The notes under the pieces are model-generated. The model was not told where the DNA came from and ran no database searches. It was given only the letters and a program-made list of their open reading frames with translations. Source: an uncultured candidate division Zixibacteria bacterium (GTDB lineage: Bacteria; Zixibacteria; MSB-5A5; UBA10806). From it: 64,000 nt of DNA. Made by a program: the position numbers and the translations under genes. Below, piece by piece: positions 15,550 to 33,441 of the stretch (positions within the stretch are counted from its first letter, which is position 1; every line of letters starts with the position of its first letter). The stretch covers positions 288,001 to 352,000 of the forward strand of contig CAWDFP010000006.1 of the NCBI GenBank assembly GCA_963801605.1. The letters are read 5' to 3'.

Positions 15550-15961
15550 CTTTATGATCCAAAATAGCAGATACGTAAATATTTCACAAGTGTTGCCTGC
15601 AAGCCAATTTGATTTTAACCGGGTTCCGGGCACTTATCAAGAAATCAAATAGTTAGACAATGGGCACTTGCAGAACGCAGAGATGATTTATTTTAATTTC
15701 GTAAAATAACAGGGACAAAGGAGGCGGATATCGAAGATACACCTTATCAGTGCAGCAATTTTAAATTTATAAGAAATTATGTAATTTTAGTGATAATAAG
15801 GGCGGTGCGCGCCGAAATATATTATATTGGCAGTGCATGGTGATCTTAGTTAACGGTCACTGGGAGAGGAAGTATGTTTGGTCTTTAGGACGAACCCAAT
15901 CCTCCTTAAACTTTTCAGTAGATTTCATTTGATTCTCCTCTTATAATAATTAAAATTCGAG

Positions 15962-16888
15962 ATGCGCGTGGAACAGACTATTTCGATAGCGACTAAATCA
16001 CAAGCAGTAAAGAAAATCAGGTTCAATAAAGTCTTTTGGGCTGTGCTTTATTCAGCCGCAATTATCGTATATATATTTATTTTTTATGGCGGAGCATCGT
16101 TTTACCTGACTCCCTATATGGATCGGCCTTACAGCGCGGCATACCGGTCGCTTCGACCGGCCGGATTTACGGGTCATGCTTACGGCGTGATCGGTTCAGC
16201 GTTGATGATTTTGATGCTTTCCTATTCTCTTCGAAAAAGAGTCAGGGTATTACGAAATTGGGGGATGTTAAGCCGCTGGCTCGATACTCATATCTTTTTT
16301 GGCATTGTGGGACCGTTGCTGGTCGTGCTGCATACAGCATTCAAGGTACAAGGGTTGGTAGCTGTAAGTTTTTGGTCGATGGTGGCGGTTACTATAAGCG
16401 GTATTTTCGGGCGTTATTTGTATCTTCAGATACCGCGTAATATCCAGGGCGACGAGCTAAGTATAAAAGAGCTCGAGGAATCAAACCTGCGCTATTCACA
16501 AGAGCTTCAGAAGGAATATAATCTCTCGGAAGAGATCGTCAAACGACTGGAGGCTCGTGAAACTTTTAAGATTTCCGAAAGCGCGGGCGCTTTCAAAATC
16601 CTGGCGACGGTGTTTGTAAATGATGCGCTCCGCCCTTTTACATTTTTTACCCGAAAGCGAGAGGAGCACGCCGATCTTAAACACCTTCCCCACGAACAGC
16701 AAAAGAAGATTGTTCGTATCTTACACCGGAAGTCGATTTTGACCAGGCGCGTGCAGCTTTTAAATCACATGCAGCGTCTTTTTCACTATTGGCATGTAAT
16801 CCACAAACCGTTTGCGATAATTATGTATTTGATAATGGTGATTCATATTACGGTGGCTGTCTGGACGGGGTATAAATGGATTTTTTAA
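15962..16888 (+). CDS. Integral membrane diheme cytochrome b-like protein (ferric-reductase-type His pairs)
   Basis: TM helices with His pairs 14 residues apart (WLDTHIFFGIVGPLLVVLH; WHVIHKPFAIIMYLIMVIH); first gene of the cytochrome operon. Confidence 0.7.
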   Translation: MRVEQTISIATKSQAVKKIRFNKVFWAVLYSAAIIVYIFIFYGGASFYLTPYMDRPYSAAYRSLRPAGFTGHAYGVIGSALMILMLSYSLRKRVRVLRNWGMLSRWLDTHIFFGIVGPLLVVLHTAFKVQGLVAVSFWSMVAVTISGIFGRYLYLQIPRNIQGDELSIKELEESNLRYSQELQKEYNLSEEIVKRLEARETFKISESAGAFKILATVFVNDALRPFTFFTRKREEHADLKHLPHEQQKKIVRILHRKSILTRRVQLLNHMQRLFHYWHVIHKPFAIIMYLIMVIHITVAVWTGYKWIF

Positions 16889-16902
16889 GGATTGCGATTT
16901 CA

Positions 16903-18589
16903 ATGCGTCAATTATCTCTGGTCGCTTTATTAATCTTTCTTGTTTCGGGAAATCTTTTGGCGCAGCTTTCACCCGGTGAGCTTTCACGGCCGCATGCATA
17001 TCTGGAAGGCCTGGAAAATTGCAATAAATGCCATGGTTTCGAAGAAAAACTTTCGCCGGACAAATGCCTGGCCTGCCATCTGTTTCTCGCCGCTCGAATC
17101 AAGGCCGGGCAGGGGCTTCATGCCAACACCGAACATTCCGATTGCGGAAGCTGTCACGTTGAGCATCAGGGGAGAAACTTTATTATCATACATTGGAATG
17201 GCGGCGAGGAAAAGTTCGATCATAATCAGACAGGTTACAAACTCGATGGTAAACATGCAAAATTAGAATGCCGGGCCTGTCATAAGAGTAATAATATAAA
17301 TCCAACAGCTAAGTTACAATCGGATAAGATAGATCTCAATCGCACCTTCCTTGGGACTCGAAAAGGATTGTCTTTCCTGCCATCCAGATGAACATCACGG
17401 ACAATTAGCAAAGGACTGCCTGACCTGTCATATTATGGCAGGATGGAAACCTGCCAGCGCTTTTGACCATTCCAAGGCCAAATATATCCTAACCGGCAAG
17501 CATACTGACGTAACTTGCGTGAAGTGCCATCCGTCGCTGACGAATGAAAATCAGCCATCAGGTAAAGCGTATACCAAATTTACCGGATTGCAATTCCAGA
17601 AGTGTTTGGACTGCCACAAAGACGTTCACAACAATAAATTTGGGCAGAACTGCGAGAGCTGCCATAATACATCAAGCTGGACAAGTGTAAATCAAACAAA
17701 ATTCGATCATTCGAAAACCCAGTATCCGCTCGAACTTAAACATGTTTCGGTTGCCTGTAACAAATGCCATGTTCCGGGAAAGCCGCTTGCCGGATTAAAA
17801 TTCAAGCTCTGCACAGATTGCCACGGCGATTATCATCGGGGAGATTTCGCATCCCGCGAGAAAAAGGGCGCTTGCGAAGAGTGCCATACATTGGCGGGAT
17901 TTGAGATCACTAAATTTACTGTCGACGAACATCAAAAAACAAAATATCAGTTGGCGGGAAGCCACCTGGCAGTCCCTTGCGACGGCTGCCACAAGAAGGT
18001 GATTCTCAACGGTAATAATGAGACGGTTCATATCAAATTCGAAAGCACTCGCTGCCAGGTCTGTCATACTGATCCTCATAAAGGAGCAGTTGACAATTAC
18101 ATGCCAAAGGGCGGATGTGAGTATTGCCACTTAGTAGAAAACTGGCGAGCCAGTTCTTATGATCATTCGCAAGCGAAATTTGTTCTCGACGGCAAACATA
18201 AGACGATCGCATGCAAGGCGTGCCATCAAAAAAAGGGTACTGATCCGCCTCTCTTACAGTTTACCGAACTGGCGCAAAATTGTCAGGGGTGCCATGATGA
18301 TATTCATCGCGGGCAGTTTGTCCAGGTTTCTTCCACAAAAGATGGCTCAAGCAAAGATACGGAATGCAATCGCTGCCATACAGCTGTTGCCTGGAAAACG
18401 CTTAAATTCGATCATAGCCGCGATTCCAAATTTATTCTCGATGGTGCTCATATCAAGCTTTTATGCATCCAATGTCATAAACCTGAAATGATAGACGGTA
18501 AAGCTTTTATAAAATATAAGCCGCTGGGGTCCAAATGCAGCGATTGCCACGGCGGTCAAACGATCCAAACCGGAGCGGGCCAATCATGA
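16903..18589 (+). CDS. 20-heme cytochrome c, split by a +1 frameshift at ~17353
   Basis: Signal peptide from ATG 16903; 4 CxxCH in the first ORF + 16 in the second. Deleting one G from CTTGGGACTC gives continuous RTFLGLEKDCLSCH. Confidence 0.85.
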
Positions 18590-21500
18590 AAAGGATAGCT
18601 ATAGCAACGGTTATTAGTCTGGCACTCGCCACGATACTGTTAGCGGCTAACGCTACTCAAAACCCTCACGGGAAACTTCAGTGGGAGTGCTATGATTGTC
18701 ACAATACAACGTCATGGACGTCCTTCAAAGAACCGATGACATTTCAGCATGACAAAACCGGTTTTCCTTTGGTGGGAAGACACGGTAAGGTCGATTGCGG
18801 CAATTGCCATAAAGATTTGAAGTTCTCCATGATAGGTTCCGCCTGCGCCGATTGCCATCCCGACATACACAGAGCGCAATTCGGGACAGATTGCGAAAAT
18901 TGCCATACGCCAAAAAACTGGGCAGACAATAAGGAAATAATTAATCTTCATGCCTCTAACGGCTTTCCATTGGTGGGAGTGCATGCGATTGCCGATTGTG
19001 ATGCCTGCCATATCGGCCAACAAAATAAAGAGTATGCCGGCACGCCAGTCGATTGCAAAGGGTGCCACGAAAGCAATTTCACATCTTCCACTGATCCCAA
19101 TCACAATCAGGCGGGATTTTCATCCGATTGTCAGAAATGCCATTTGCAGGTGGCATCAAGCTGGAAAAACACGACGTATCAGCACCCGGCGGCATTTGCT
19201 CTTCACGGAGGACATTTAACAATCGGCTGCAACAGTTGCCATACTCAAGGCTTCACCAATACAAGTTCGGATTGCTATTCGTGTCATCAAGCGCAGTTTA
19301 ATGCCACAACCAATCCGACACACGCCGCCTTTGGTTTCCCAACTACCTGTGCCGCCTGCCACAACGATGTCTCCTGGCAAGGAACACAATTCGATCATGT
19401 GCAGGCCAGCCAATTCGCCTTAAATGGGGCACATGCAACCGCACTGTGCACATCATGCCATATAAATAATCAACTAACGGGGCTGGCTCGCGATTGTTAT
19501 GGCTGCCACCAAAGAGATTTTTCGGGAGCCAACAACCCGGATCACGTCCAGGGCAATTTCCCTCAGACTTGTCTGACCTGCCATAATGAAAACGCCTGGT
19601 CACCGGCGACATTCGACCACAGTCAGTCGCGTTTCCCGCTTACCGGAGCCCATACCGCGCTTCAGTGCCAGGCTTGCCATGCAAACGGCTATCAGAATAC
19701 GCCATTCGATTGTTTCTCATGCCATCAGACTAATTATAATGGCGCCACGAATCCCAATCACGTTCAGAACAACTTCGATCACAACTGCGCAGTCTGCCAC
19801 AGCACATCAGCCTGGTCACCGTCGACTTTTAACCACAACAATACTACTTTCCCTCTGACCGGAGCTCACACGTCAATACAGTGCGTAGCCTGTCATTCGG
19901 CCGGTTACCAAAATACTCCGACGGATTGTTATTCATGTCATCAAGCGGCATTCAACGGAGTAAGCGATCCCAACCACGTGACGAATAATTTCAATCACGA
20001 TTGCACTCAATGCCATAACACCTCGGCCTGGACTCCAGCGACGTTCGATCACGCCAACACCCGATTCCCCTTGACGGGGGCGCATATTCCTCTGCAATGT
20101 ATCGCTTGCCATGCAAATGGATATCAAAATACGCCATACGACTGCTATTCATGTCATGCCAACGACTTCAACAACGCCACGGATCCAAATCATATCCAGA
20201 ATAATTTCAGCCATGACTGCACCCAATGCCACAATACATCAAGTTGGAGCGATGGTTTCAACCACAGTAATTTGGGATTTCCTTTAACAGGTGCGCATAC
20301 ATCCCTGCAATGTATCGCCTGTCATGCTAACGGGTATCAAAATACGCCTGCTGATTGTTATTCTTGCCATGAAGCGGCATTCAATGCGGTGACTGATCCA
20401 AACCACGTCCAAAACAATTTCAATCATGATTGTACTTTATGTCACAGTACGACTTCCTGGTCACCGGCAACATTCGATCATAGCTCAACCACGTTCCCTC
20501 TTACAGGAGCGCACACATCCGTTCAGTGCATAGCCTGTCATGCCAACGGCTACCAGAATACGCCTACGGATTGCTATTCATGTCATGAAGCAGCCTTCAT
20601 TGGAGTATCCGATCCTAATCACGTCACGAATAATTTTGATCATAACTGCACGATCTGCCACACTACCACCGGCTGGTCCCCGGCGACATTCGATCATAAC
20701 GGCACGGCTTTCCCTCTAACGGGAGCGCATATATCGCTACAGTGCATAGCCTGCCATGCCAACGGATATCAAAATACGCCGACGGATTGCTGGTCCTGTC
20801 ATCAGGCAGCCTACAATGGGGCAACCGATCCCAACCATGTTCAGAATAATTTTGATCATAATTGCACGATCTGTCACAGCACCACGGGCTGGTCGCCGTC
20901 GACATTCAATCACAACAATACCGCTTTTCCTCTAACGGGAGCGCATATATCGCTGCAGTGTATAGCCTGTCATGCCAATGGTTATCAAAATACACCTACT
21001 GATTGCTGGTCATGCCATTCCGGCGATTACAATCGAACCACGGATCCGAACCATGTTCAGAATAATTTCAGCCATGACTGTACCCAATGTCATAACACTT
21101 CAAGATGGGATGATGGTTTTAACCATGGCAATTTAGGTTTCCCCTTAACCGGAGCGCACTCGACGCTTCAATGTATCGCATGTCACGCTAATGGATATAT
21201 TAATACGCCTGCGGATTGTTATTCCTGCCATGAAACGGCATTTATTGGTGTAACCGATCCCAACCACGTTCAAAACAACTTTAATCATGATTGTACTCAA
21301 TGCCATACAACAAATGGCTGGACGCCAGCCACATTTGACCATGCAGGTACGCCATTCCCGTTAACCGGGGCACACGTTTCGGTGCAATGTGTAGCATGCC
21401 ATGCGAACGGTTATCAAAACACTCCGACGGATTGCTATGCCTGCCATCAAACAGCATACGATGGCGTAACCGATCCTAATCACGTTCAAAACAACTTCAA

Positions 21501-22857
21501 TCATGATTGTACTCAATGCCATACTACAAATGGCTGGACGCCGGCTACATTTGACCATTCAGGAACGCCATTTCCGTTAACCGGGGCACATGTTTCGGTG
21601 CAGTGCATAGCATGCCATGCGAATGGTTATCAGAATACTCCCACAGATTGCTATTCCTGCCATCAAACCGCATATAATGGCGTAACCGATCCCAATCACG
21701 TTCAAAATAATTTCGATCATAATTGCACGATCTGCCACACTACCACAGGTTGGTCACCATCGACCTTTAATCACGCTAATACTCCATTCCCATTAACAGG
21801 AGCACACACATCATTGCAGTGCGTAGCCTGCCACGCTAATGGATATCAAAACACTCCGACAGATTGCTATTCCTGCCATCAAACTGCCTATAACGGAGTG
21901 ACTGATCCTAACCACGTTCAAAACAATTTTGATCATAACTGCACGACCTGTCATACCACTTCAGGCTGGTCACCGGCCACATTCGACCATAGCAATACTA
22001 CTTTCCCCTTAACAGGAGCGCACACATCGTTGCAATGCGTAGCCTGTCATGCCAACGGATATCAAAATATACCAACCGATTGTTATTCCTGCCATCAAAC
22101 TGCCTATAACGGAGTAACTGATCCCAATCACGTTCAAAATAATTTCGATCATAATTGCACGATCTGCCACACCACTACTGGTTGGTCACCGGCCACATTC
22201 GACCATAGCAATACTACTTTCCCCCTAACAGGAGCGCACACTTCTTTACAATGCGTGGCCTGTCATGCCAACGGATATCAAAATATACCAACCGATTGTT
22301 ATTCCTGCCATCAAACTGCCTATAACGGAGTGACTGATCCCAATCACGTGTCTGATAATTTCAGCTATATTTGTACGCAGTGCCATACTACAACAGGTTG
22401 GTCCCCGGCTACGTTTAATCATAATCAGACATCCTTCCCGCTAACGGGCGCGCATGTGAGCCTGCAATGCCTGAGTTGCCACGCCAATGGATTCGACAAC
22501 ACGCCGACCGATTGTTTTGCCTGCCATCAAAGCGATTTTAATGGCGCCACAAATCCAAACCATCAGAGCGCTGGTTTCCCGACTCAATGCGTAATGTGTC
22601 ATAACACCAGCGCCTGGAGCCCATCAACATTTAATCACGACGCCCAATATTTCCCAATCTACTCAGGAAATCACCGGGGACGATGGAGTACCTGCTCGCA
22701 GTGCCATACCAATCCCTCGGATTTTAGCACATTTGAATGTATCCTCTGTCATGAGCATAACCGCACTGACACAGATTCGCACCATCAGGGCGTGCCGGGC
22801 TATCAGTACAACAGCCAGGCCTGCTATAATTGCCACCCCAGAGGAAGCGGCGGATGA
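18586..22857 (+). CDS. Giant 58-heme cytochrome c of tandem triheme repeats
   Basis: ATGA overlap with the upstream stop; signal peptide MKRIAIATVISLALATILLAANA; 58 CxxCH counted by hand in 1423 aa. Confidence 0.93.
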   Translation: MKRIAIATVISLALATILLAANATQNPHGKLQWECYDCHNTTSWTSFKEPMTFQHDKTGFPLVGRHGKVDCGNCHKDLKFSMIGSACADCHPDIHRAQFGTDCENCHTPKNWADNKEIINLHASNGFPLVGVHAIADCDACHIGQQNKEYAGTPVDCKGCHESNFTSSTDPNHNQAGFSSDCQKCHLQVASSWKNTTYQHPAAFALHGGHLTIGCNSCHTQGFTNTSSDCYSCHQAQFNATTNPTHAAFGFPTTCAACHNDVSWQGTQFDHVQASQFALNGAHATALCTSCHINNQLTGLARDCYGCHQRDFSGANNPDHVQGNFPQTCLTCHNENAWSPATFDHSQSRFPLTGAHTALQCQACHANGYQNTPFDCFSCHQTNYNGATNPNHVQNNFDHNCAVCHSTSAWSPSTFNHNNTTFPLTGAHTSIQCVACHSAGYQNTPTDCYSCHQAAFNGVSDPNHVTNNFNHDCTQCHNTSAWTPATFDHANTRFPLTGAHIPLQCIACHANGYQNTPYDCYSCHANDFNNATDPNHIQNNFSHDCTQCHNTSSWSDGFNHSNLGFPLTGAHTSLQCIACHANGYQNTPADCYSCHEAAFNAVTDPNHVQNNFNHDCTLCHSTTSWSPATFDHSSTTFPLTGAHTSVQCIACHANGYQNTPTDCYSCHEAAFIGVSDPNHVTNNFDHNCTICHTTTGWSPATFDHNGTAFPLTGAHISLQCIACHANGYQNTPTDCWSCHQAAYNGATDPNHVQNNFDHNCTICHSTTGWSPSTFNHNNTAFPLTGAHISLQCIACHANGYQNTPTDCWSCHSGDYNRTTDPNHVQNNFSHDCTQCHNTSRWDDGFNHGNLGFPLTGAHSTLQCIACHANGYINTPADCYSCHETAFIGVTDPNHVQNNFNHDCTQCHTTNGWTPATFDHAGTPFPLTGAHVSVQCVACHANGYQNTPTDCYACHQTAYDGVTDPNHVQNNFNHDCTQCHTTNGWTPATFDHSGTPFPLTGAHVSVQCIACHANGYQNTPTDCYSCHQTAYNGVTDPNHVQNNFDHNCTICHTTTGWSPSTFNHANTPFPLTGAHTSLQCVACHANGYQNTPTDCYSCHQTAYNGVTDPNHVQNNFDHNCTTCHTTSGWSPATFDHSNTTFPLTGAHTSLQCVACHANGYQNIPTDCYSCHQTAYNGVTDPNHVQNNFDHNCTICHTTTGWSPATFDHSNTTFPLTGAHTSLQCVACHANGYQNIPTDCYSCHQTAYNGVTDPNHVSDNFSYICTQCHTTTGWSPATFNHNQTSFPLTGAHVSLQCLSCHANGFDNTPTDCFACHQSDFNGATNPNHQSAGFPTQCVMCHNTSAWSPSTFNHDAQYFPIYSGNHRGRWSTCSQCHTNPSDFSTFECILCHEHNRTDTDSHHQGVPGYQYNSQACYNCHPRGSGG
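19597..22614 (+). repeat. 14 in-frame tandem repeats of 216 bp (two of 213 bp), each encoding a triheme module
   Basis: Consensus W(S/T)PATFDHxxTxFPLTGAHxSLQ-CxACH-ANGYQNTPTD-CYSCH-QxAYNGVTDPNHVQNNFDHN-CTxCH; span 3018 bp = 14x216-6. Confidence 0.9.
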
Positions 22858-22881
22858 GACCTGAGATGGTAAATTAATGTT

Positions 22882-23667
22882 ATGAACATATTGTTATTGG
22901 TTTTCCCATTAGTATTGGCTCTTGGCGGAGAGAAAATAGAAACTCCGCACAAGGTTTTAAGGTTTGAGTGTAACGATTGTCATAGTTCCACAACCTGGCG
23001 GGAGGTCAAATTCGATCACGCTAAAACGGACTTTGCCCTTGAAGATCGGCATACGAAAGTAAAATGCGTCCAATGCCATTCGCTTGAGGATTTTCGTGTT
23101 GCGGGAAGTGATTGCGTTTCCTGTCATGATGATATTCATCAGGGCAAACTGGCCCATACTTGTGAACAATGCCACAGCGCCCGCGGGTGGTCCGTCTTCA
23201 ATACGTTGAAGGTTCATGCCAATACATCATTTCCCCTGATTGGCGCCCATGCCAGGCTCGATTGCCGCGCGTGTCATATCAGCGAAATAGAGGGAGAGTA
23301 TTCATTCTTGAAATCGGAGTGCATATTTTGTCATAAAACCGATTTTGAACAAGCTCAAAGTCCACCGCACACGCAGATGGGCCTGGGAACTCGCTGCGAG
23401 GATTGCCACTTTATGGTAAGTTGGCAACCAGCCAATTTTAGCGGACACGACTCGTTCTTTCCGATTTTTTCCGGCAGGCATGCCGGTGTCTGGACAAGCT
23501 GCGAAATTTGCCATGCCAGTTCGCAGGACTATACGATATTTGATTGTTTTAATTGTCACGAGCATTCCAAGGTTCGAATGGATGGTGCACATTCGGATAT
23601 CAGGAATTATGTATATGAAAGCGGCGCATGTTATTCTTGCCATCCTGGTGGCAGCGCTGGAGGATGA
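22882..23667 (+). CDS. Decaheme cytochrome c, short paralog of the 58-heme protein
   Basis: Signal peptide; 10 CxxCH; N- and C-terminal segments align by eye with the ends of the giant cytochrome. Confidence 0.9.
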   Translation: MNILLLVFPLVLALGGEKIETPHKVLRFECNDCHSSTTWREVKFDHAKTDFALEDRHTKVKCVQCHSLEDFRVAGSDCVSCHDDIHQGKLAHTCEQCHSARGWSVFNTLKVHANTSFPLIGAHARLDCRACHISEIEGEYSFLKSECIFCHKTDFEQAQSPPHTQMGLGTRCEDCHFMVSWQPANFSGHDSFFPIFSGRHAGVWTSCEICHASSQDYTIFDCFNCHEHSKVRMDGAHSDIRNYVYESGACYSCHPGGSAGG

Positions 23668-23669
23668 TC

Positions 23670-25271
23670 ATGAAAATATTAGCGATGCTCTTATTGCTAT
23701 TTTCGCCAGCCTATCTTCTGGCTCAAAAGACTACGTGCCATGTCAAGTATGTCTCCGGAGAAAGCATTTATATCGATGCCGGGAACGCTGACAGCCTGGC
23801 TGTAGGAGATACTCTTCGGATTGTGCACGGCGATAGCGTCACGGCAACGCTTGAGATATCTTTTGTAGCCGAAAATTCCTCGTCGTGCAAAATATTGAGT
23901 TCGTCCGGAGAAATCAGGGTAGGCGATTCGATTCAATTATCGCAAAAGCCTGTTATTGCCAAATCGATGCAGCCTGCGATTGATACCACCCAATCAGTTG
24001 CCATTCCCACGCCGGCACCGGCAGTGCCGGAACAAGCCGCAAAACCGAAGCCTGCCAGAGTCGATGGCAGCGTAGCGTTTCAGCTTTTTCGATTTACCGA
24101 TCGCAGCCCGTCCCACCTTAATTTTACCCAGCCGACCATGCGATTTAATTTAAAGGCAAACAAGCTTTTTGGCCAGGATATCACCCTTACTATCCGAACC
24201 GATAGCCGCTATAATATGCGCAGCCGCGCTTATAATATTGATGTACCTAAGAACGAATGGCGAAATCGAATATATCAGTTTTCTCTAGGCTTTGCCGGAG
24301 ACAACGCGCCATATAATTTCGAGGTTGGCCGAATCCTTTCAAATAAGGTCAGCGGAGTAGGGTATATCGATGGCTTTATGGCACAAAAAAGGGTGGGAAA
24401 TGGTTTTCAAATAGGAGGGTTTGGGGGAACTCAACCGGAGTGGCAATATTCCAATTTCCAAACCTCGCTTCAAAAATATGGGATTTTCGTAAGTTATGTA
24501 TCGGGTTCTTATCAGAAAAAACGCTTTGAATCAGCGGTGGCAGCCACTGGCGAATATCACGGTCAGATAGTTAGCCGGGAGTACTTCTTTATGAAAAACA
24601 ACCTCAATATTGGGGGCTCCTGGAACTTCTATCAAAGCAGCGAAATCGACATGAATCGCTCCTGGCGTAAGGCGAGAACTGGCAAGAGCTTATCGATAAC
24701 AAACCTGTTTCTTTCGGCGCGAGGCCGCCTATTTAAAAGGCTATCGGCATCTTTAAGTTATGATAACCGTAAAAATTATTGGACTTACGAGACGAGGTCT
24801 CTGGCCGACAGTCTGTTCGATAGTGTTCTTCGTCAGGGGATACGGACGGATTTATCGCTTCGGGCCGGAAAGGGGTTTTCGATCTTTACTAACTTTGGTT
24901 ACAATAAAAGATCAACCGATACCAGGGCCACTTACTCTTATGGAGGCGGCGTCAATAAGAGTAATTTCTTATCAACCAAGCAATTTTTTAACAGCCAGAT
25001 AACCGGTTTCTCGGGTCCTTTCACCGACGGATACAATCTATCTTTAACCGTTGGCCGATATCTGTGGGCGGGAAATATGCTCTCCCTAGGCTACGGTGCT
25101 TATGCCTATAAATTCAACGCCGCTGGAATCAGCAGACTTAACCAGTGGTTTCAAACCAACACGCAGTTCGATATAACTCATAGCGCCTATTTTTCCGGTA
25201 CATTCGAATACGATACCGGCAAGGATACCAAGGGCGAACGTCTGATTGGTGAATTAGGGTATCGTTTTTAA
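23670..25271 (+). CDS. Putative outer-membrane beta-barrel protein
   Basis: Signal peptide, small N-terminal beta domain, Pro/Ala linker, then ~400 aa of alternating amphipathic strands ending GELGYRF (terminal Phe, BAM-type); GGAGGA RBS. Confidence 0.75.
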   Translation: MKILAMLLLLFSPAYLLAQKTTCHVKYVSGESIYIDAGNADSLAVGDTLRIVHGDSVTATLEISFVAENSSSCKILSSSGEIRVGDSIQLSQKPVIAKSMQPAIDTTQSVAIPTPAPAVPEQAAKPKPARVDGSVAFQLFRFTDRSPSHLNFTQPTMRFNLKANKLFGQDITLTIRTDSRYNMRSRAYNIDVPKNEWRNRIYQFSLGFAGDNAPYNFEVGRILSNKVSGVGYIDGFMAQKRVGNGFQIGGFGGTQPEWQYSNFQTSLQKYGIFVSYVSGSYQKKRFESAVAATGEYHGQIVSREYFFMKNNLNIGGSWNFYQSSEIDMNRSWRKARTGKSLSITNLFLSARGRLFKRLSASLSYDNRKNYWTYETRSLADSLFDSVLRQGIRTDLSLRAGKGFSIFTNFGYNKRSTDTRATYSYGGGVNKSNFLSTKQFFNSQITGFSGPFTDGYNLSLTVGRYLWAGNMLSLGYGAYAYKFNAAGISRLNQWFQTNTQFDITHSAYFSGTFEYDTGKDTKGERLIGELGYRF

Positions 25272-25301
25272 GATCCTGATAAAGATCTGAGTGAGTATAT
25301 A

Positions 25302-26624
25302 ATGGAATCTGCAGCAATTTGGGTTATTACAGCTATTATAATTATAGGGATTATAACGCCCTATTTTGTCAAGTTCCGTAGAAGTCAGAAACACGATTTA
25401 GAGCGTATCAAGGAAGCACAACTCCTCGGATTGGACCGTCCCAGGGGACAATATCCTTTGATCGACATGTCGTTTTGTATCGGATGCGGCTCTTGTGTCA
25501 GAGCGTGCCCGGAGGAGGACGTTCTGGGCATCGTATTTGGGCGGGCGATGGTTGTCAATGGACAACGCTGTGTGGGGCATGGATACTGCGAAGCCGCCTG
25601 CCCGGTTGGGGCGCTGAAAGTGGGATTGGGCGATATTAAAACCCGACCCGATATTCCCATAACCGACGAATATGGTCAGACAAATATACCCGGCATCTAC
25701 ATAGCGGGCGAATTAGGAGGATTATCGCTTATAAGAAACGCGATAGATCAGGGACATAAGGCGATTAACCATATTTTTCAAAGCGGACGGCGCACGAATT
25801 CAAACGATATCTATGATGTTATCATCATTGGCGCCGGTCCAGCGGGGATGAGTGCGTCACTGGCGGCCATAAAGTATAATTTGCGATATGTTACGTTCGA
25901 CCAGCAACAGCCCGGCGGCACGATCCTTCAATACCCCCGTCAAAAATTGGTGATGACTCAACCGGTGGAAATTCCACTTTACGGCAAGCTCGATGCTGAG
26001 GAATATTCCAAGGAAGCGCTTCTTGAAATTTGGCAGGATGCAGTTCAAAAAAACAGCGTTTCCCTTAAATGCGACGAAAAAGTGGAACGGGTAATCACAG
26101 GTGACGGAATTATCGAAATTCAGACCCCAAAAGGAGGTTATCGAGCCGCGAATGTTATCCTGGCAATCGGACGACGCGGTACGCCAAGAAAACTGGGAGT
26201 GCCCGGGGAGGATCTTCCAAAGGTGATGTATCAACTCGTTGATGCTCAGTCGTATCAGAATAAAAATATCCTAATTGTAGGTGGTGGTGACAGTGCGGTT
26301 GAGGCGGCGGTCGGCCTGGCAAGGCAGAAAGGCAACAAGGTCACGATTTCATATCGTCAGGCTAAATTTGCGCGGGTCAAAAAGAAAAACGAGGACCGCA
26401 TTAATGAAATAATAGCGCAAAAAAAAGCCCGTCCAATATTCTTTTCGAATGTTCTCGAGATCAGAGAAAAAACGGCGCTGCTCAGGGTTGGCGACAATGA
26501 GAATCTCGAGATCCCCAACGATTATGTTTTCATATTTGCCGGGGGCGAACCGCCGTTTAAGATGCTAAATGAGATCGGAATAGTATTCGGGGGAGAGGCT
26601 AAGCCGATCCCTCTGGCATCATAA
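25302..26624 (+). CDS. Membrane-anchored 4Fe-4S ferredoxin / FAD-dependent NAD(P)H oxidoreductase (thioredoxin-reductase-like fold)
   Basis: N-terminal TM; CIGCGSCVRACP and CVGHGYCEAACP; TNIPGIYIAGE; IIGAGPAG; GRRG; VGGGDSAVE. Confidence 0.88.
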   Translation: MESAAIWVITAIIIIGIITPYFVKFRRSQKHDLERIKEAQLLGLDRPRGQYPLIDMSFCIGCGSCVRACPEEDVLGIVFGRAMVVNGQRCVGHGYCEAACPVGALKVGLGDIKTRPDIPITDEYGQTNIPGIYIAGELGGLSLIRNAIDQGHKAINHIFQSGRRTNSNDIYDVIIIGAGPAGMSASLAAIKYNLRYVTFDQQQPGGTILQYPRQKLVMTQPVEIPLYGKLDAEEYSKEALLEIWQDAVQKNSVSLKCDEKVERVITGDGIIEIQTPKGGYRAANVILAIGRRGTPRKLGVPGEDLPKVMYQLVDAQSYQNKNILIVGGGDSAVEAAVGLARQKGNKVTISYRQAKFARVKKKNEDRINEIIAQKKARPIFFSNVLEIREKTALLRVGDNENLEIPNDYVFIFAGGEPPFKMLNEIGIVFGGEAKPIPLAS

Positions 26625-26773: not shown

Positions 26774-28096
26774 ATGAGCAATACCTTGAGATTTCAAAGC
26801 ATAGCATTAGTTATTTTAGTAATTATAATCGGATTCGCTTGCCTGTCTGCCGGGGCTATTGAGACAAGCCCCACGACGGTTGCGCCCAAATACAAGATAA
26901 GCTTCACTGAGCGTTTTCGAATCGAAACCTGGGATAATACCACCAGTTTGAATGACACTCTCCACGCCGGAACCAGCTACACCAGAAACAGATCTACCAT
27001 TATGGGGCAGTGGTTTCCCAATGAGAAGGTTGAGTTGGCTTTAAAATTCGCCAACGAGTTTCGTTCCTATTTAGTCCCTGAGAACAGGCAATTTAATATA
27101 GATGAGCTCTTTATCGACCAGCTTTATTTCAAATGGAAAAATATCGCTAACGTTCCGCTGACCGTTACATTTGGCCGTCAAAACATGCAGTTCGGCGAGG
27201 GCTTTGTGATTATGGATGGAGGCCCGCTCGATGGATCACGCAGCGCTTATTTTAACGCCGTTCGCGCCGATTATGAATTTGCCTCCAAAAAGAATATCTC
27301 CGCGTTTTATACAGTCCAGAATCGTCGGGACGATTTGCTTCCCATTATAAATAATAAGAAAAAAGCCTTGAACGAACAAAACGAGCGCTCTGGCGCTATT
27401 TATTTTAACGGAGATTTCGATTCGAGGAATTTTCAGGCTTACTTTATCCGCAAAGATGCTAAAAGCGCAACCTCGCCCCCATACAATACTCACGTTAACA
27501 CCATCGGGGAACGCACCGTTACTCCGGTATATGCGAAATTATCGCTTACCTTTGAAGGCGCTTATCAATTCGGTAAACGTGGTGGAGCCGACCTGTCTGC
27601 TTATGGCGGTTATGCTTACCTTAGTTATCCGTTTTGTTGGCCGCTGCGCTTCCCTGTGAGCATGACGATCGGGACGATATATCTCAGCGGTGATAATCCC
27701 GACACGCACAAGTATGGGGGATGGGACCCTCTCTACGGACGTTGGCCTAAGTGGAGCGATTCCTATATCTACACCTTGCTGAAAGAAAATGGCGTTGCCT
27801 ATTGGACTAATCTCTTTTCGCTCTGGGGGCGAGCGCAAATTGATATCGCAAAGGGCGTTAAATTCTCATTCGATTATCATCATCTGAGAGCTCCGTTTAA
27901 CGACACGACCAGAATGACGTTCCCCGGCGGCAAGGGCAAATATCGAGGTGAATTGGGAATATTCAAATTGACTTATCAGATCAACAAGATGGTCAATGGA
28001 CGGATTATTTGGGAGAATTTTAATCCCGGCTCGTATTACCTTCCCGGCGCTGACAAGGCCAATTGGATGCAAATTGAATTTATGTTGAGTCTATAA
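26774..28096 (+). CDS. Alginate-export (AlgE-like) family outer-membrane porin
   Basis: Signal peptide; ERFRIETW, IDQLYF, GRQNMQFGEG, FNAVR, EGAYQFG, YLSGDNP, DPLYG motifs. Confidence 0.75.
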   Translation: MSNTLRFQSIALVILVIIIGFACLSAGAIETSPTTVAPKYKISFTERFRIETWDNTTSLNDTLHAGTSYTRNRSTIMGQWFPNEKVELALKFANEFRSYLVPENRQFNIDELFIDQLYFKWKNIANVPLTVTFGRQNMQFGEGFVIMDGGPLDGSRSAYFNAVRADYEFASKKNISAFYTVQNRRDDLLPIINNKKKALNEQNERSGAIYFNGDFDSRNFQAYFIRKDAKSATSPPYNTHVNTIGERTVTPVYAKLSLTFEGAYQFGKRGGADLSAYGGYAYLSYPFCWPLRFPVSMTIGTIYLSGDNPDTHKYGGWDPLYGRWPKWSDSYIYTLLKENGVAYWTNLFSLWGRAQIDIAKGVKFSFDYHHLRAPFNDTTRMTFPGGKGKYRGELGIFKLTYQINKMVNGRIIWENFNPGSYYLPGADKANWMQIEFMLSL

Positions 28097-28141
28097 AATA
28101 TTAGAAAATGTGATGTATTGGCGATAGAGTAAGGAGATATT

Positions 28142-29620
28142 ATGGCGCTAAAAATTATCATTCTGGCGGCCTTCGCCCTGATGACTATCACGGTGGGCAT
28201 CATCGCCTCACGCAAAGCCCGCTCGTTTTCCGATTTCTTTTTAGGCGGTAACGATATCGGCCCCTGGATGACGGCTTTCACCTATGGCGCCGCTTATTTT
28301 TCGGCGGTGCTGTTCATCGGTTTTGCAGGCAAGATCGGTTGGGATTTCGGGATGTCAGGTCTCTGGATCGCCCTGGGCAATTCTTTTATCGGAGTTCTTG
28401 GGGTCTGGTGGATATTGGGCCCGCGAATTAAAAAGATGGCCACCGAAACCGGCGCTCAGACCATGGCAGAATATTTCGAGTTGCGATACAACAGCAAAGC
28501 CCTGAATATTTACACCTCGATTTGCATTTTCATTTTCTTTATCCCCTATACGGCGGCGGTATTTATGGGGCTTTCATATTTATTTAAAGCTAATTTCAAT
28601 GTCGAATATACTACGGCATTAATTTTCATGGGAGTTTTCACTGCTATATATCTGGTATTGGGCGGTTATCGTTCAATGACGATGATCGATGTTATCTTTG
28701 GAATAATCATGATTGCCGGAGTGATTACGCTTTTTTTCAGTACCGTAACCCGAGGCGGAGGCATGGCGATGATCTTTTCCGGGTTGGAAGCCATAAATCC
28801 CAAGTTGACATCGACTATCGGTCCGCCGGGAATCTGGCCTCTTTTCAGTCTGGTCTTTTTGACAAGCGTGGCTCCTTTTGCAATGCCGCAGCTTGTGCAG
28901 AAATTTTATGCGATTAAAGATCAACGTTCGATTCGAATCGGTATGGTGGCATCAACTATATTTTCAATCCTGATCGCGGGAGTCGCTTATTTTACCGGCG
29001 CCACCGCCAGGCTTTTTATAAATCCTGAAAATGCACCGGCCGCTTTCAATAATGGCAAGCCGGTGTTCGATGCCCTGGTACCGGAATTTTTAACCAAGGC
29101 GATACCGGAAGGCCTGGCAATCCTGATATTGCTTCTGGTGCTATCGGCCTCGATGTCAACCCTGGCGGCTTTGGTGCTTATTTCAAGCTCTACGGTCTCC
29201 AAAGATGTTTATCACAGATTTATCAATAAAAAGGCGAGCGATAAGAGGCTGACGATTCTGATGAGAGCCTGTAGCGCCTTTTTTGTGCTGCTTTCAGTGA
29301 TAATGGCCTATTTCAAACCGGCAACGATCGTGGCAATTCTGGGAATCTCCTGGGGCTCGATCGGGGCGGCTTTCCTGGGGCCGTTTGTGTGGGGATTACT
29401 CAGTAAACGAACCACCAAGTTTGGCGCATTTTCATCGTCAGTGCTTGGCCTGGCGACATGTTTGATACTATATGTTAAGGGAATTTCTCCGCCCGAGGCC
29501 GGTACAATTGGAATGCTGATATCTCTGGGGGCTTGCCCGATAATAAGCTTGTTCGCATTCGGCAAAGAACCGGTTATCGCTCCCGAGGTGCTTGAAGTAG
29601 AAGCGAAGCAGCGGATATAA
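28142..29620 (+). CDS. Sodium:solute symporter (SSS family)
   Basis: DFFLGG, YFSAVLFIGFAG, TMAEYFELRY, LGGYRS...D, MPQLVQKFYA, SASMST. Confidence 0.9.
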   Translation: MALKIIILAAFALMTITVGIIASRKARSFSDFFLGGNDIGPWMTAFTYGAAYFSAVLFIGFAGKIGWDFGMSGLWIALGNSFIGVLGVWWILGPRIKKMATETGAQTMAEYFELRYNSKALNIYTSICIFIFFIPYTAAVFMGLSYLFKANFNVEYTTALIFMGVFTAIYLVLGGYRSMTMIDVIFGIIMIAGVITLFFSTVTRGGGMAMIFSGLEAINPKLTSTIGPPGIWPLFSLVFLTSVAPFAMPQLVQKFYAIKDQRSIRIGMVASTIFSILIAGVAYFTGATARLFINPENAPAAFNNGKPVFDALVPEFLTKAIPEGLAILILLLVLSASMSTLAALVLISSSTVSKDVYHRFINKKASDKRLTILMRACSAFFVLLSVIMAYFKPATIVAILGISWGSIGAAFLGPFVWGLLSKRTTKFGAFSSSVLGLATCLILYVKGISPPEAGTIGMLISLGACPIISLFAFGKEPVIAPEVLEVEAKQRI

Positions 29621-29644
29621 ATATAGCTAAATTAAAATCAATTG

Positions 29645-29674
29645 CCGGGGATTATTATACTCCCCGGTTTTTTT
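29645..29674 (+). terminator. Intrinsic terminator
   Basis: CCGGGGA...TCCCCGG stem followed by TTTTTTT. Confidence 0.7.
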
Positions 29675-30269
29675 ATTTCTTCACAACTCCCAGCGGAGCG
29701 ACTACCTTACCATAAACCTCATTTAATACCTGAGCCAAACCAGCATACATCGCCAGCAAACCGCAAATGATACCTTCAATGCCGGCAACCAGCTTAACGG
29801 CCGCGCTTTCGGTGGCATCGCCCAATGCTAACAGGAAGAAAAGCAGCGCCAGGGTGCCGAAAACAAGCTGTAAGGCGCGACTAATTTTCAGGGTTCCGAT
29901 AAACATGATGGCTGTAAACAGACCCCAGATAAAAAGATAGGACGCCATAGCCGCATTACCCGGAGCAGAGCCCCATCCGATACGAGGGAAAACAAGCAAC
30001 GCCACCAGGCTCATCCAGAAAAGGCCATAGGCGGTAAAAGCGGTTGTGCCAAATGTATTTTCCTTTTTCCATTCCATAATTCCGGCGATAACCTGCGCCA
30101 AACCTCCAAAAAACAGACCCATTCCCAGTATCATGGTATCGAGCGGGTATAGCCCGGCATTGTGCAGATTAAGGAGCACAGTGGTCATTCCAAATCCGAG
30201 TAAACCTAAAGGCGCCGGATTTGCGGTAGATTCTTTAACTATGCGCACCGAAGCGGCGGCGGTATCCAT
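29673..30269 (-). CDS. satP: Acetate/succinate uptake transporter (AceTr/GPR1/FUN34/YaaH)
   Basis: Signature [39 protein letters not shown]. Confidence 0.93.
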
Positions 30270-30440
30270 TACTTTCCTCCATTCATCAATTTAGTATCCG
30301 ATCATCGACCTTATTTAATATCCCATGCCACGTTTGTCCATAATAATTCCGGGGTTACGATATGCTTGCTTAGTTTGAGATTTCATTATAACTTATACTT
30401 TGAAATGGAATATTAAACAATTAAGGCGGAATCAAACCCT

Positions 30441-31358
30441 ATGAAATTTGAAAATATCATTTTGCACGAGGTGGGGCCACGAGATGGTTTACAGGTCGAA
30501 AAGACCAGTGTGCCGCTGGATGAGAAAATTCGCTGGATAGATGGTGTTCTTAAAAGTGGAATCGATATCATTCAGCTTGGCTCCTTTGTCAATCCGGAAA
30601 AGGTGCCTCAAATGGCCGATACCGATAAGCTTTTCGCGCATTACGCATCGGTGGATAAAAAAGGAGTGATTTTATCGGCATTAGTGCTCAATGAAAAGGG
30701 GTTGGAGCGTGGCCTCGCTTGCGGAGTTGAGATGTTCTGCATGGGTGTTTCCGCCAGTGAGACTCATAGCAAGAAAAACACCGGCATGACCACGTCGGAG
30801 GCGTTGGGGCGAATTATACCGATGGCTAAACAAGCGCAAGCGGCCGGGAAAAAAGTACAGGTTTCGATTCAATCGGCGTTCGGTTGCGGTTTCGAGGGGC
30901 CAGTACCGGCGGAAAGAGTGCTTTCAATCGCCAAAGAGTATTTTGCCAATGACATTAGAAATATCAGCTTAGCCGATACAGCCGGACATGGCAACCCCGT
31001 TCAGGTTGAAGAGCTTTTCGGATCGCTAAAAGAACTTGAACCTGATGCACAGCTGGCCTGCCATTTCCATAATACTTATGGCCTGGGGTTAGCTAACTGC
31101 TACGCCGCGTTGAAATCAGGTGTTACATCCTTTGAGAGCGCATTTGGCGGTTTGGGCGGATGCCCCTTTACAAAGCTTCCGGCCGGTAATGTTTCCACCG
31201 AAGACCTGGTTCATTCGCTGCAGCGCATGGGGCTTCGTCGCGATATCAAGCTTGATATTCTGCTCGATGTGGCTCGTATGGTGGCAGGCTACTTTAACAG
31301 AGAGCTGCCGGGCTTTATCCTGAAATCCGGATCAATTGTTGATTTTAAGAAAGTCTAA
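30441..31358 (+). CDS. Hydroxymethylglutaryl-CoA lyase family protein
   Basis: EVGPRDGLQ, VPQMAD, SLADTAG, HFHNTYG, GGLGGCPF, GNVSTEDL. Confidence 0.9.
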   Translation: MKFENIILHEVGPRDGLQVEKTSVPLDEKIRWIDGVLKSGIDIIQLGSFVNPEKVPQMADTDKLFAHYASVDKKGVILSALVLNEKGLERGLACGVEMFCMGVSASETHSKKNTGMTTSEALGRIIPMAKQAQAAGKKVQVSIQSAFGCGFEGPVPAERVLSIAKEYFANDIRNISLADTAGHGNPVQVEELFGSLKELEPDAQLACHFHNTYGLGLANCYAALKSGVTSFESAFGGLGGCPFTKLPAGNVSTEDLVHSLQRMGLRRDIKLDILLDVARMVAGYFNRELPGFILKSGSIVDFKKV

Positions 31359-31375
31359 TATCGCAGGAGAATAAA

Positions 31376-32569
31376 ATGAAGCTTCTTGAAAAAATCCGCG
31401 TGATCGATATGACCAATGTCCTTTCGGGACCGTTTACCACGTTACATCTATCGCTATTAGGCGCCGAGGTAATTAAAATAGAAAATCCCGATGGTGGAGA
31501 TTTAGCTCGAAAACTGGGCAATGTCCCCAAGCTCAACAAAGAACTGATGGGCACGAGTTTCTTAGCACAGAACGCCAACAAGAAATCGTTAACGTTGAAC
31601 TTGAAAGTACCCGAGGCCAAGGAGATTTTCGGGAAGCTTCTAAAAACAGCCGATGTGGTAGTTGAAAATTTTCGTCCCGGCGTGATGGCCCGGTTGGGTT
31701 TCTCATACGAAGAGATCTGCAAGATTAATCCCAAAATTGTTTATTGCGCTATCTCGGGTTTCGGGCAGACCGGTCCGGATGCTTTTAAGCCAGCCTATGA
31801 CCAGATTATCCAGGGGCTTTCCGGAGTGATGGATGTCAATGGAGACGAGCGGCTTCATCCTCTGCGCGCCGGTTTCCCGGTTTGCGATACCGTCGGCGGC
31901 CTGAATGCCGCCTTTGCGATCATGGCAGCGTTATATCATCGGGAACGAACCGGTGAGGGTCAGTTTATTGATATCGCCTTGCTTGATGCTATTATGCCGC
32001 TGATGGGCTGGGTGGCGGCTAATTTGCTCATTGGCGGTCAGGCGCCCATCCCGATGGGAAACGACAACTTTACCGCGGCTCCATCCGGGGCATTCCGTAC
32101 GAAGGATGGTTTTATAAATATCGCCGCCAACCAACAGAAGCAGTGGGAGGATCTGGCAGATTCGGTTTGCCTGCCGGAACTAAAAACCGATCCCCGGTTC
32201 CAGGAACGTGATACACGGAAAGCGAACCGCAAGCTTTTGACCCCAATTCTCGAAGAAAAGCTAATGCAAAATACCACCGAGCATTGGGTCGATCTCCTAA
32301 ATGCCAAAGGGATACCGTCGGGGGATATCGTTGGCCTCGAAAAAGCGCTGACCAGCGATCAAATCAAGCATCGGGAAACTCTGACTACCATTAAAGATCC
32401 GCAAATTGGAGATGTCAGGATTTTTAATCTTTCTGCTAAATTTTCCAAGACACCGGCCAAGGTAGAAGCTCCGCCTCCGAGGCTTTCAGCGCATACCGAA
32501 GAGATTTTAATGTCGCTCGAATATACCAAAGAAGATATAAAATCGCTTAAAGAAAAGATGGCGATTTAA
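31376..32569 (+). CDS. Family III CoA-transferase (CaiB/BaiF)
   Basis: LSGPF...LGAEVIKIE, NANKKS, DVVVENFRPG, SGFGQTGP, AYDQIIQ, catalytic-Asp region VCDTVGG. Confidence 0.92.
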   Translation: MKLLEKIRVIDMTNVLSGPFTTLHLSLLGAEVIKIENPDGGDLARKLGNVPKLNKELMGTSFLAQNANKKSLTLNLKVPEAKEIFGKLLKTADVVVENFRPGVMARLGFSYEEICKINPKIVYCAISGFGQTGPDAFKPAYDQIIQGLSGVMDVNGDERLHPLRAGFPVCDTVGGLNAAFAIMAALYHRERTGEGQFIDIALLDAIMPLMGWVAANLLIGGQAPIPMGNDNFTAAPSGAFRTKDGFINIAANQQKQWEDLADSVCLPELKTDPRFQERDTRKANRKLLTPILEEKLMQNTTEHWVDLLNAKGIPSGDIVGLEKALTSDQIKHRETLTTIKDPQIGDVRIFNLSAKFSKTPAKVEAPPPRLSAHTEEILMSLEYTKEDIKSLKEKMAI

Positions 32570-32990: not shown

Positions 32991-33441
32991 AAATCTCTCC
33001 TGGCTCTATTTAATGTTTCGCATAACATCCGTATATAACCTGTTTTTGCAATTACGGATATATACCTTACGATTATCGGCATGTTTTCAATAACATTACA
33101 ATACTTATTATAACAAGATCATACCATGTTTACCTCTCTTGTACATTTTTAATTGAAACTCGCGAGTCGAATTTTCATCAATTTCTTATTATATATTGAC
33201 ATGGCTTCCCATTAATCTTTATATAAAGGCAGTGCGGTTTCCGAACAACGGGCGGATTTACGCGCGTTGTGAGCTTCAAAAAGGCTCCATGAAGAACTTA
33301 AATCGAAGACGGGCAAAAGATGCGGTAATTTTGAATCTCGTCGAATTAAATCAGCGGGAAAATTAACAATAAATGATAGAAAACACAGTTGCTAATTTAG
33401 AACTGTGTGTTTCCTCGGTTAACAACGTCAGGAGTGTACTT

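Follow-up and report, generated by a model that had tools for sequence, protein, structure and literature searches.

Six neighbouring genes in a 64,000-nucleotide stretch of DNA from an uncultured Zixibacteria bacterium (hereafter the window) raise two questions: do they move electrons from NAD(P)H to extracellular acceptors, and is such a route new? An earlier sequence-only reading had proposed a self-contained conduit of this kind, fed by a NOX-like module and distinct from Mtr and Pcc systems.

Parts of the cluster

The cluster and its putative promoter are composed as follows:

15929..15956, + strand: candidate promoter, weak match to a sigma-70-like consensus (9/12), just before gene A
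15962..16888, + strand: gene A, 308-aa inner-membrane protein of the PCC3 'IMP' type
16876..18589, + strand: gene B, 20-haem cytochrome c with a signal peptide, predicted periplasmic
18586..22857, + strand: gene C, 58-haem cytochrome c of 1423 aa
22882..23667, + strand: gene D, 10-haem cytochrome c, n=0 paralogue of C
23670..25271, + strand: gene E, 533-aa predicted outer-membrane protein
25302..26624, + strand: gene F, 440-aa Fe-S flavoprotein with an N-terminal anchor helix

The co-oriented genes with overlapping or 2-30 bp junctions described earlier were recovered: A and B overlap by 13 bp, B and C by 4 bp (with the start of C corrected to 18586), and gaps of 24, 2 and 30 bp separate C from D, D from E (starting at 23670) and E from F. 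The total of 88 c-haems in three cytochromes is likewise confirmed by CXXCH counts (4 + 16 in B, 58 in C and 10 in D). However, the six genes are seven ORFs as assembled, since a frameshift near 17350-17365 separates the 20-haem gene into a 4-haem piece (16876-17391) and a 16-haem piece (17351-18589). The break is probably an assembly error, because the assembly has flagged splits in 29 of its 125 orthologues of same-genus genes, including a few shadow frames. Among relatives, the first cytochrome is a single 20-haem ORF in 57 of 67 non-edge cases. Four DNA sequencing runs, all with small shares, and no RNA run are listed as containing this DNA; the contigs from them do not extend over the frameshift. 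The conduit is not self-contained, since the haem attachment genes are on another contig of the same genome. We do not count gene G (26774-28096) as part of the operon, given a 149-bp gap and the absence of a homologue from related loci. The promoter match is weak, as the sigma-70-like scan found 37 sites for 23.7 expected. Scans with Rex, FNR, CRP and Fur consensus motifs found none upstream of gene A in the window, and such motifs precede A in at most 4 of 79 relatives.

Gene A encodes five hydrophobic segments, a 119-aa helical loop predicted to be cytoplasmic, SGXXG at 146 and WX3HX13H at 106 and 277, the latter accounting for the two His pairs already noticed. Their four His are invariant in 117/117 aligned homologues. 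We infer that A is a dihaem cytochrome b in which H110 and H281 would hold a haem on the inner side, H124 and H295 another on the outer side. Among 56 homologues of A, 18 weakly match PF01794 (Ferric_reduct; E<=0.1, best E 4e-4) and 15 the Ni_hydr_CYTB profile (E<=0.1); A itself falls below the PF01794 cut-off. Foldseek of the A model returned nothing at E<=0.001, and the VIA fold search gave no clear match (best Z 8.9, on long helices). Ferric-reductase structures are absent among these fold matches, which still allows such a fold. Searching PDB sequences with profiles of A and E gave nothing useful, and the atlas neighbours of both are unnamed. A tree of 141 A-family rows, obtained by a quick method and showing long branches, carries no claim here.

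The haem number of B is nearly fixed at 20, whereas outer cytochromes have anything from 10 to 73 haems, increasing three at a time; 49 of the 55 complete ones have 10+3n haems. Protein C is made of an N-terminal cap, three-haem repeats of ~72 aa and a C-terminal cap. D, optional among relatives, shares the haem spacing of C and is 36-38% identical to it at either end; judged by its sequence, it is the shortest, repeat-free (n=0) form of this protein. D was rejected as an MtrA-type subunit, being paralogous to C and having no match to TIGR03508 (DmsE/MtrA decahaem), for which B and C score 49 and 42 (cut-off 192). The signal peptide of C has no lipobox, and a lipobox was found in 0/72 outer cytochromes; their surface exposure is assumed.

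Gene E encodes a signal peptide, a small N-terminal beta domain weakly matching ExtJ, a disordered linker and a barrel ending in Phe, and matched no Pfam family. Its AlphaFold2 model (pLDDT 88) has 22 strands between residues 130 and 532 and no plug-sized domain. Its fold matches are generic outer-membrane barrels, TonB receptors reaching Z ~17-18 and MtrB coming at rank 44 (Z 13.3). Model and matches support the beta-barrel of the earlier reading as a predicted outer-membrane barrel.

Likeness to PCC3 and to other conduits

By its motifs and gene order, the core of the operon is a PCC3-type porin-cytochrome cluster, a group predicted in 2017 whose function is itself a prediction (PMC5566968). 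Hence, the architecture is not new, contrary to the novelty entertained earlier. The PCC3 IMP, already compared with ferric reductase and NOX, is a ~300-aa protein with five helices, SGXXG on helix 4 and WX3HX13H on helices 3 and 5 (PMC5566968); all these motifs are present in A. Furthermore, the order IMP, periplasmic cytochrome, extracellular cytochrome, porin is that of Slit_1446-1449, which is, with the type cluster Slit_0867-0870, one of two PCC3 of Sideroxydans lithotrophicus ES-1 (PMC5566968; Gallionellaceae survey, PMC10734462). PCC3 cytochromes are repeat-built, with ~21 and 10-85 haems and 22-39 aa per haem, and the second is rich in small residues; B and C fit this description, C having 24.5 aa per haem and a T+S+A+G content of 34%. 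The likeness to the ES-1 clusters is drawn from motifs, layout and proteome peptides rather than from full-length type sequences.

There are also differences. The barrel is a 533-aa protein with a small beta domain, whereas the ES-1 porins, labelled sporulation-domain and TPR, have 744 and 862 aa. B has 20 haems instead of 21-27, and the decahaem paralogue D is extra. PCC3 hosts are Proteobacteria, whereas the carriers found here belong to Zixibacteria, Calditrichota, Ignavibacteria, Bacteroidota and Acidobacteriota. Moreover, the accessible parts of PMC5566968 do not list F among the components. The portions of the PCC3 literature available to us report no experiment on any PCC3, and those on Melioribacter, Caldithrix, Zixibacteria RBG-1 and large-scale cytochrome surveys do not describe this cluster.

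Other systems resemble the operon less. PCC4 and porin-less clusters also combine an HX13H membrane protein, a multihaem cytochrome and a redox protein (PMC5566968, Supplementary Table 6), and A finds such membrane proteins at 21-27% identity. However, the cytochromes of these clusters have 4-18 haems, usually no porin accompanies them, and the flavoprotein has another architecture. PCC4 was rejected on haem counts: its periplasmic cytochromes have 4, 5 and 10 haems with no large extracellular one, against 20, 58 and 10 here. MtrCAB/MtoAB and OmbB-OmaB-OmcB share the general trans-envelope design of a barrel with multihaem cytochromes. Unlike the former, the cluster has no CymA/NapC-type gene and no lipoprotein outer cytochrome; the latter uses octa- and dodecahaem lipoprotein cytochromes, from which both the haem counts and the absent lipobox differ. 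In the profile tests run, MtrB_PioB PF11854 has no match anywhere in the genome, which, with the lack of a TIGR03508 match in D, agrees with the view that the conduit is not of the Mtr type; it is probably not of the Pcc type either.

Flavoprotein F and the probable entry of electrons

Flavoprotein F is a fixed fifth part of the cluster and an addition to the known PCC3 picture. A close homologue of A occurs in 47 of 151 genomes of the phylum, and all 47 also encode a full-length F, on the same contig in 41; the two F-only genomes are both broken at contig ends. Among loci with >=8.5 kb downstream of A, 45/47 contain cytochrome, barrel and flavoprotein genes, so that the operon is not a chance assemblage. 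Hence, the gene neighbourhood comparison that the sequence-only reading had suggested reveals strong co-conservation. F is found in 46/47 of these long loci, which come from several phyla, and in 14 of 15 long Bacteroidota loci, this phylum having the system in 31 of 301 sampled genomes. Its position shifts (at the end, or directly beside A), yet it stays inside the cluster. F also has a counterpart next to the type PCC3 Slit_0867-0870: the 430-aa pyridine nucleotide-disulfide oxidoreductase Slit_0866. Five peptides are listed for it, and visual alignment matches three of them to F (identities 10/11, 8/14 and 6/8). The single Slit_1447 peptide contains the FDHS-T repeat motif common to B and C.

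The anchor helix, ferredoxin domain and Pyr_redox domain of F correspond to the membrane-anchored ferredoxin-FAD oxidoreductase described earlier. F has two 4Fe-4S motifs, the second being CxxHxxCxxxC with an invariant His. The flavin domain, an FAD/NAD(P)H domain resembling TrxR and YpdA, is circularly permuted, so that residues 121-140 of F correspond to TrxR 265-284. Its closest solved relatives are PDB 7A76, 7A7B, 3AB1 and 6GAS (E 7e-24 to 8e-11), the nearest folds being YpdA/Bdr bacillithiol disulfide reductase and TrxR-type ferredoxin-NADP reductases. F differs from these by the permutation, the fused ferredoxin domain and the anchor, and scores 158 with the YpdA profile (cut-off 340). 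A true thioredoxin reductase was rejected, since the conserved redox CXXC is absent from the NADPH domain and conserved Cys occur only in the ferredoxin domain. The body of F is predicted to be cytoplasmic; K/R are more abundant after the anchor in 56/56 rows of the family, in which the Tat motif is absent.

With NOX, ferric reductases and MsrQ-Fre, as generally understood, the pair A-F shares His pairs 13 residues apart on helices 3 and 5 and a proposed path from NAD(P)H through flavin and dihaem b across the membrane. However, F is a Pyr_redox/TrxR-type protein with 4Fe-4S motifs and has no FNR-type FAD/NADPH domain, so that it was rejected as a NOX member. A differs from ferric reductases by its five helices and large inner loop, and its acceptor would be a c-haem wire. 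The proposal of a NOX-like entry module is thus retained for a ferric-reductase-like dihaem A served by an NAD(P)H flavoprotein, and abandoned for the dehydrogenase domain.

Distant relatives of A adjoin other flavoproteins: an FNR-type FAD/NAD + 2Fe-2S protein with a fold unrelated to that of F (loci L107 and L108), or a Pyr_redox + cNMP + 4Fe-4S protein (L109). Our best reading is that these pairings and the near-perfect A-F linkage favour a direct NAD(P)H feed. A complex prediction of A and F with haems and clusters (score 0.01, mark 0.32) weighs neither way.

The published model instead links electrons via the quinone pool (PMC5566968): A would be a quinone-reactive cytochrome b connected to menaquinone, and F a feeder at the same node or an accessory. 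We regard this as unlikely. It is consistent with the weak Ni_hydr_CYTB matches, with one Sideroxydans PCC3 without adjacent F and with the ability of most carriers to make menaquinone: menB or mqnC occurs in 38/47. Both genes are missing in 9/47 carriers, compared with 44/104 non-carriers in the phylum, and therefore the operon is not enriched where quinone synthesis is missing. The present genome itself probably has quinone, since it keeps a menA-like gene, menG, an ACIII/Qrc-like complex and oxidases; for this reason, the argument that a host without quinones implies a quinone-independent route was rejected. Conversely, three observations speak against a quinone-linked A: the A-F linkage, the several kinds of NAD(P)H flavoprotein that accompany relatives of A, and the nine carriers with neither menB nor mqnC, which include this family and in which menA-like salvage is possible.

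Probable direction and possible uses of the electron flow

On balance, we lean towards a flow from NAD(P)H through flavin and Fe-S clusters to dihaem b, the haem wire and the exterior, a route that would bypass the customary quinone step. This is built on motifs, conservation, linkage and predicted folds, from which cofactors, topology, contacts and direction are inferred. Electrons taken from NAD(P)H by F would go from FAD via its pair of 4Fe-4S clusters to both b haems predicted in A, the His of the second cluster motif being the likely exit point to haem. The 20-haem B would then carry them over the periplasm, and C or D, presumably passing through barrel E, would deliver them to outside acceptors. 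The fixed B and the length-variable outer cytochrome may provide a fixed periplasmic span and an adjustable outer reach. An outward electron current that takes no protons along draws on the membrane potential, as it does in phagocyte NOX. Therefore, such a system could serve as a redox valve or give access to acceptors that lie too low for menaquinol; it would not be energy-conserving by itself.

Some observations do not sit easily with this reading. A full copy is carried on a plasmid by the cultured Emticicia oligotrophica DSM 17448, an aerobe that is not known to respire metals. The neighbours of the second Sideroxydans PCC3, Slit_1446-1449, encode an HD hydrolase and an aldolase instead of F. 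Slit_0866 is raised on late magnetite cultures (log2 2.35 and 2.55), above its level on Fe(II)-citrate, while the proteins of its own cluster, Slit_0867-0870, are largely undetected in the proteome of this Fe(II) oxidiser, unlike what simple outward flow would give.

The path from F to A may also serve a non-respiratory purpose, such as electron storage in the 88 haems, reduction of metals for uptake or detoxification, or cytochrome maturation; reductant would then go to the periplasm or surface, and the barrel would be a pore for export or anchoring, not a conductive sheath. The barrel-less A-flavoprotein-cytochrome triplets common in aerobic Proteobacteria, ccsA directly upstream of the Emticicia copy, ccm genes near a Methylophaga triplet, the outer cytochromes without lipobox and the cost in membrane potential all point this way. 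We nevertheless find it rather improbable: nearly all long loci keep the barrel, a fixed 20-haem protein with a length-variable partner suits spanning and reach, and A has no Cys in its sequence for a thiol relay. Inward flow, in which F would make NAD(P)H with electrons from Fe(II) minerals, cathodes or partner cells, is very unlikely despite the magnetite response of Slit_0866 and the frequency of PCC3 in iron oxidisers (PMC5566968), since no ion-coupling subunit is encoded, reducing NADP+ in this way would demand a special donor or coupling, and most carriers found here belong to lineages that we take to be heterotrophic. As to the donor, NADP+ (~-320 mV) can be reduced against the membrane potential only from near -450 mV or with a coupling ion.

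Among Gram-negative bacteria, the conduits studied in detail take their electrons from the quinone pool. If A does receive electrons straight from F, cytoplasmic NAD(P)H would be coupled to the outside in about a third of the sampled genomes of the phylum and a tenth of the Bacteroidota, many sediment heterotrophs would become candidate electron exporters, and PCC3 in iron oxidisers would have to be read differently. More tentatively, PCC3 might across many phyla consist of five parts and work as a trans-envelope analogue of NADPH oxidase that bypasses quinone and ends in a 10+3n wire. This possibility, if true, would provide a new entry route for Gram-negative extracellular electron transfer, revise the published quinone model and allow reduction, aided by membrane potential, of minerals, humics and partner cells below the reach of menaquinol.

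Layout and conservation of the operon

Six co-oriented genes form the operon, with neighbours overlapping by up to 13 bp or lying up to 30 bp apart:

15962..16888, + strand, gene A, membrane protein
16876..18589, + strand, gene B, 20-haem cytochrome
18586..22857, + strand, gene C, 58-haem cytochrome
22882..23667, + strand, gene D, 10-haem cytochrome
23670..25271, + strand, gene E, predicted outer-membrane barrel
25302..26624, + strand, gene F, flavoprotein

The closest named homologues are from Zixibacteria, which points to a host from that phylum. The 88 c-type haems announced by the sequence-only reading in these tightly joined genes were recovered as CXXCH motifs (4+16 in the two frames of gene B, 58 in C and 10 in D). 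Intact 20-haem homologues match frame 1 of gene B up to about 17355-17364 and frame 2 from 17351. This break is most likely an assembly error, since the first cytochrome is a single 20-haem ORF in 57 of the 67 non-edge cases among 80 loci and since 29 of 125 same-genus orthologues (covered at at least 80%) were flagged as frame-split in this assembly, including a few shadow frames. About one in five tested genes being frameshifted, among them that of oxidase subunit I, apparent pseudogenes of this assembly should be distrusted.

Upstream, a minus-strand ORF of 23 codons with a Shine-Dalgarno-like sequence (15857-15928) diverges from gene A, 33 bp apart. No clear ribosome-binding site was found upstream of gene A, which may be leaderless. 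Downstream lies a separate co-oriented block (26774-32569) that begins with an alginate-export-family barrel, followed by genes that we take to be sodium:solute symporter-, acetate channel-, HMG-CoA-lyase- and CoA transferase-like. Further on is a very large ORF, presumably for a secreted protease-like protein (33373-40009); it breaks off suddenly and the following ORF seems to carry it on, which probably reflects a further frameshift.

The operon is real and widely conserved. Named hosts of the 80 loci include Zixibacteria, Calditrichota, Ignavibacteria, Bacteroidota, Acidobacteriota and Ca. Electryonea. Among the 47 loci with at least 8.5 kb downstream of gene A, all carry the cytochromes, 45 carry E, 46 carry F and 45 carry all of these, a strong co-conservation of the genes. 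Within the phylum, 49 of 151 genomes encode a full-length F and 47 a close A (a partial F-like match and a distant A-like one being set aside); all 47 also encode F, 41 of them on a single contig, a co-occurrence to which no statistic is attached because related genomes are not independent. In the Bacteroidota sample, 31 of 301 genomes encode a close A, and F was present in 14 of the 15 fetched regions (out of 20) that were long enough, the remaining one carrying a broken A alone. An Emticicia plasmid carries a full copy downstream of ccsA.

Other forms were also encountered. One decayed copy retains A, the 20-haem gene and F, with the outer cytochrome and barrel only as fragments, and another retains only a broken A. 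A Bradyrhizobium BTAi1 plasmid carries three distant A-like genes, and a short A-like form (~190 aa) occurs in about 30 small genomes (2-3 Mb) of the Bacteroidota sample.

Predicted properties of the proteins

Gene A encodes five hydrophobic segments and a charged helical loop of 119 aa. Its residues H110, H124, H281 and H295, invariant across 117 aligned sequences, form two WX3HX13H motifs, and SGXXG lies at 146. The protein itself matches no Pfam or NCBIfam family above cut-off; its homologues weakly match Ferric_reduct (18/56) and Ni_hydr_CYTB (15/56) in profile searches (E<=0.1). From the motifs and charge distribution, we infer a dihaem b protein with one haem per membrane side. Distant relatives adjoin FNR-type/2Fe-2S or Pyr_redox/cNMP/4Fe-4S flavoproteins and small cytochromes.

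The body of protein F is predicted to be cytoplasmic, since K/R are commoner after than before its N-terminal helix (56/56 rows) and no row (0/56) has a Tat motif. Its first cluster motif is CxxCxxCxxxC; in the second, His93 replaces the second Cys (56/56). The flavin domain is nearest to YpdA/Bdr and thioredoxin reductases (TrxR), and its fold is circularly permuted, since residues 121-140 align with the C-terminal FAD motif of TrxR. From TrxR features, we take a basic YR[K/R] stretch with R358 and K360 to suggest NADPH. The aligned homologues have no conserved Cys beyond the ferredoxin part. This anatomy would suit an NAD(P)H-to-one-electron transducer rather than a disulfide reductase.

Gene E matches no Pfam family, and no PF11854 match was found anywhere in the genome by profile search. 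Its AlphaFold2 model is a confident beta-barrel (pLDDT 88), with 22 predicted strands counted from residue 130; a small beta domain and then a disordered linker precede the barrel. Phe is the last residue in 111 of 118 homologues.

Cytochrome C is built of three-haem repeats of ~72 aa between an N-terminal and a C-terminal cap. D aligns to both ends of C (36-38% identity) and has its haem spacing minus the repeats. Of 72 downstream cytochromes from the 80 loci, 55 match both caps; once the 17 without a cap are excluded, haem numbers follow 10+3n (from 10 to 73) in 49 of the 55. In Bacteroidota copies, counted in stop-to-stop frames, some numbers fall outside this series (for example 32, 38 and 48). 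A lipobox is absent from all 72. The fixed size of B and variable length of C suggest that B spans the periplasm and that C provides outer reach. Genome-wide, there are 25 multihaem ORFs with 268 CXXCH motifs, including a 42-haem protein; other multihaem clusters lie on contigs C6 (773354-788176 and 845550-866203) and C7 (3698-9697), and ccm-type haem attachment genes at the start of C7.

Relationship with PCC3

The sequence-only reading considered this conduit a possibly uncharacterised architecture. However, its core was already predicted as PCC3, defined in PMC5566968 by a porin, extracellular and periplasmic multihaem cytochromes and an inner-membrane protein (IMP) whose motifs are identical to those of gene A. 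The operon is a variant of that predicted system and not a new class. The same paper likens the IMP to ferric reductase/NOX and suggests that it connects to quinone. In the accessible parts of later publications (PMC10734462, bioRxiv 2025.02.27.639646, PMC13386937), PCC3 is still treated as predicted and, where its parts are listed, they number four. Full-text searches pairing PCC3 or porin-cytochrome systems with NADPH yielded no paper other than PMC5566968; subscription journals and supplements may hold more.

In Sideroxydans lithotrophicus ES-1, proteome tables describe Slit_0866 as a 430-aa pyridine nucleotide-disulfide oxidoreductase adjoining porin Slit_0867 (PMC12016527); PMC8788666 confirms Slit_0867 as the porin and Slit_0870 as the IMP. 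Since Slit_0866 adjoins this porin and three of its five listed peptides match gene F by eye (PMC12016527 supplement), the type PCC3 cluster probably shares this fifth gene and its position. Unlike the operon described here, one ES-1 PCC3 copy has no adjacent F, according to the same tables.

Putative electron path and the role of quinone

Linkage, motifs and folds are best read as a path by which electrons from NAD(P)H would reach the FAD of F, then its two 4Fe-4S clusters, the two b haems of A and cytochrome B, and would pass to C or D and through barrel E to an acceptor outside the cell. By textbook potentials, outward flow would run downhill with the help of the membrane potential, which it would consume; this suits a redox valve or acceptors of low potential. 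Inward NADP+ reduction would need a very low-potential donor.

Several data count against quinone-free entry. menB or mqnC is present in a higher share of operon carriers (38/47) than of non-carriers (60/104); 53 of the 151 genomes of the phylum have neither. In the family of this bacterium, menB and mqnA/D were not found in any of 14 genomes and 13 carry menA-like genes; the genome studied here has menG and a weaker menA-like gene, together with an ACIII/Qrc-like operon and a cytochrome c oxidase. This points to quinone derived from a scavenged precursor or through an unknown pathway, and salvaged quinone is likely in this bacterium. In the ES-1 tables, late magnetite cultures contain significantly more Slit_0866 than do those grown to the late stage on Fe(II)-citrate (log2 2.35 and 2.55), with its neighbouring PCC3 proteins largely undetected (PMC12016527); Slit_0866 might work with the other PCC3 copy. 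This rise in an iron oxidiser and the F-less PCC3 of ES-1 count against the NAD(P)H-to-exterior path. The value of the operon lies in an overlooked flavoprotein and in a hypothesis open to testing, that electrons enter without quinone.
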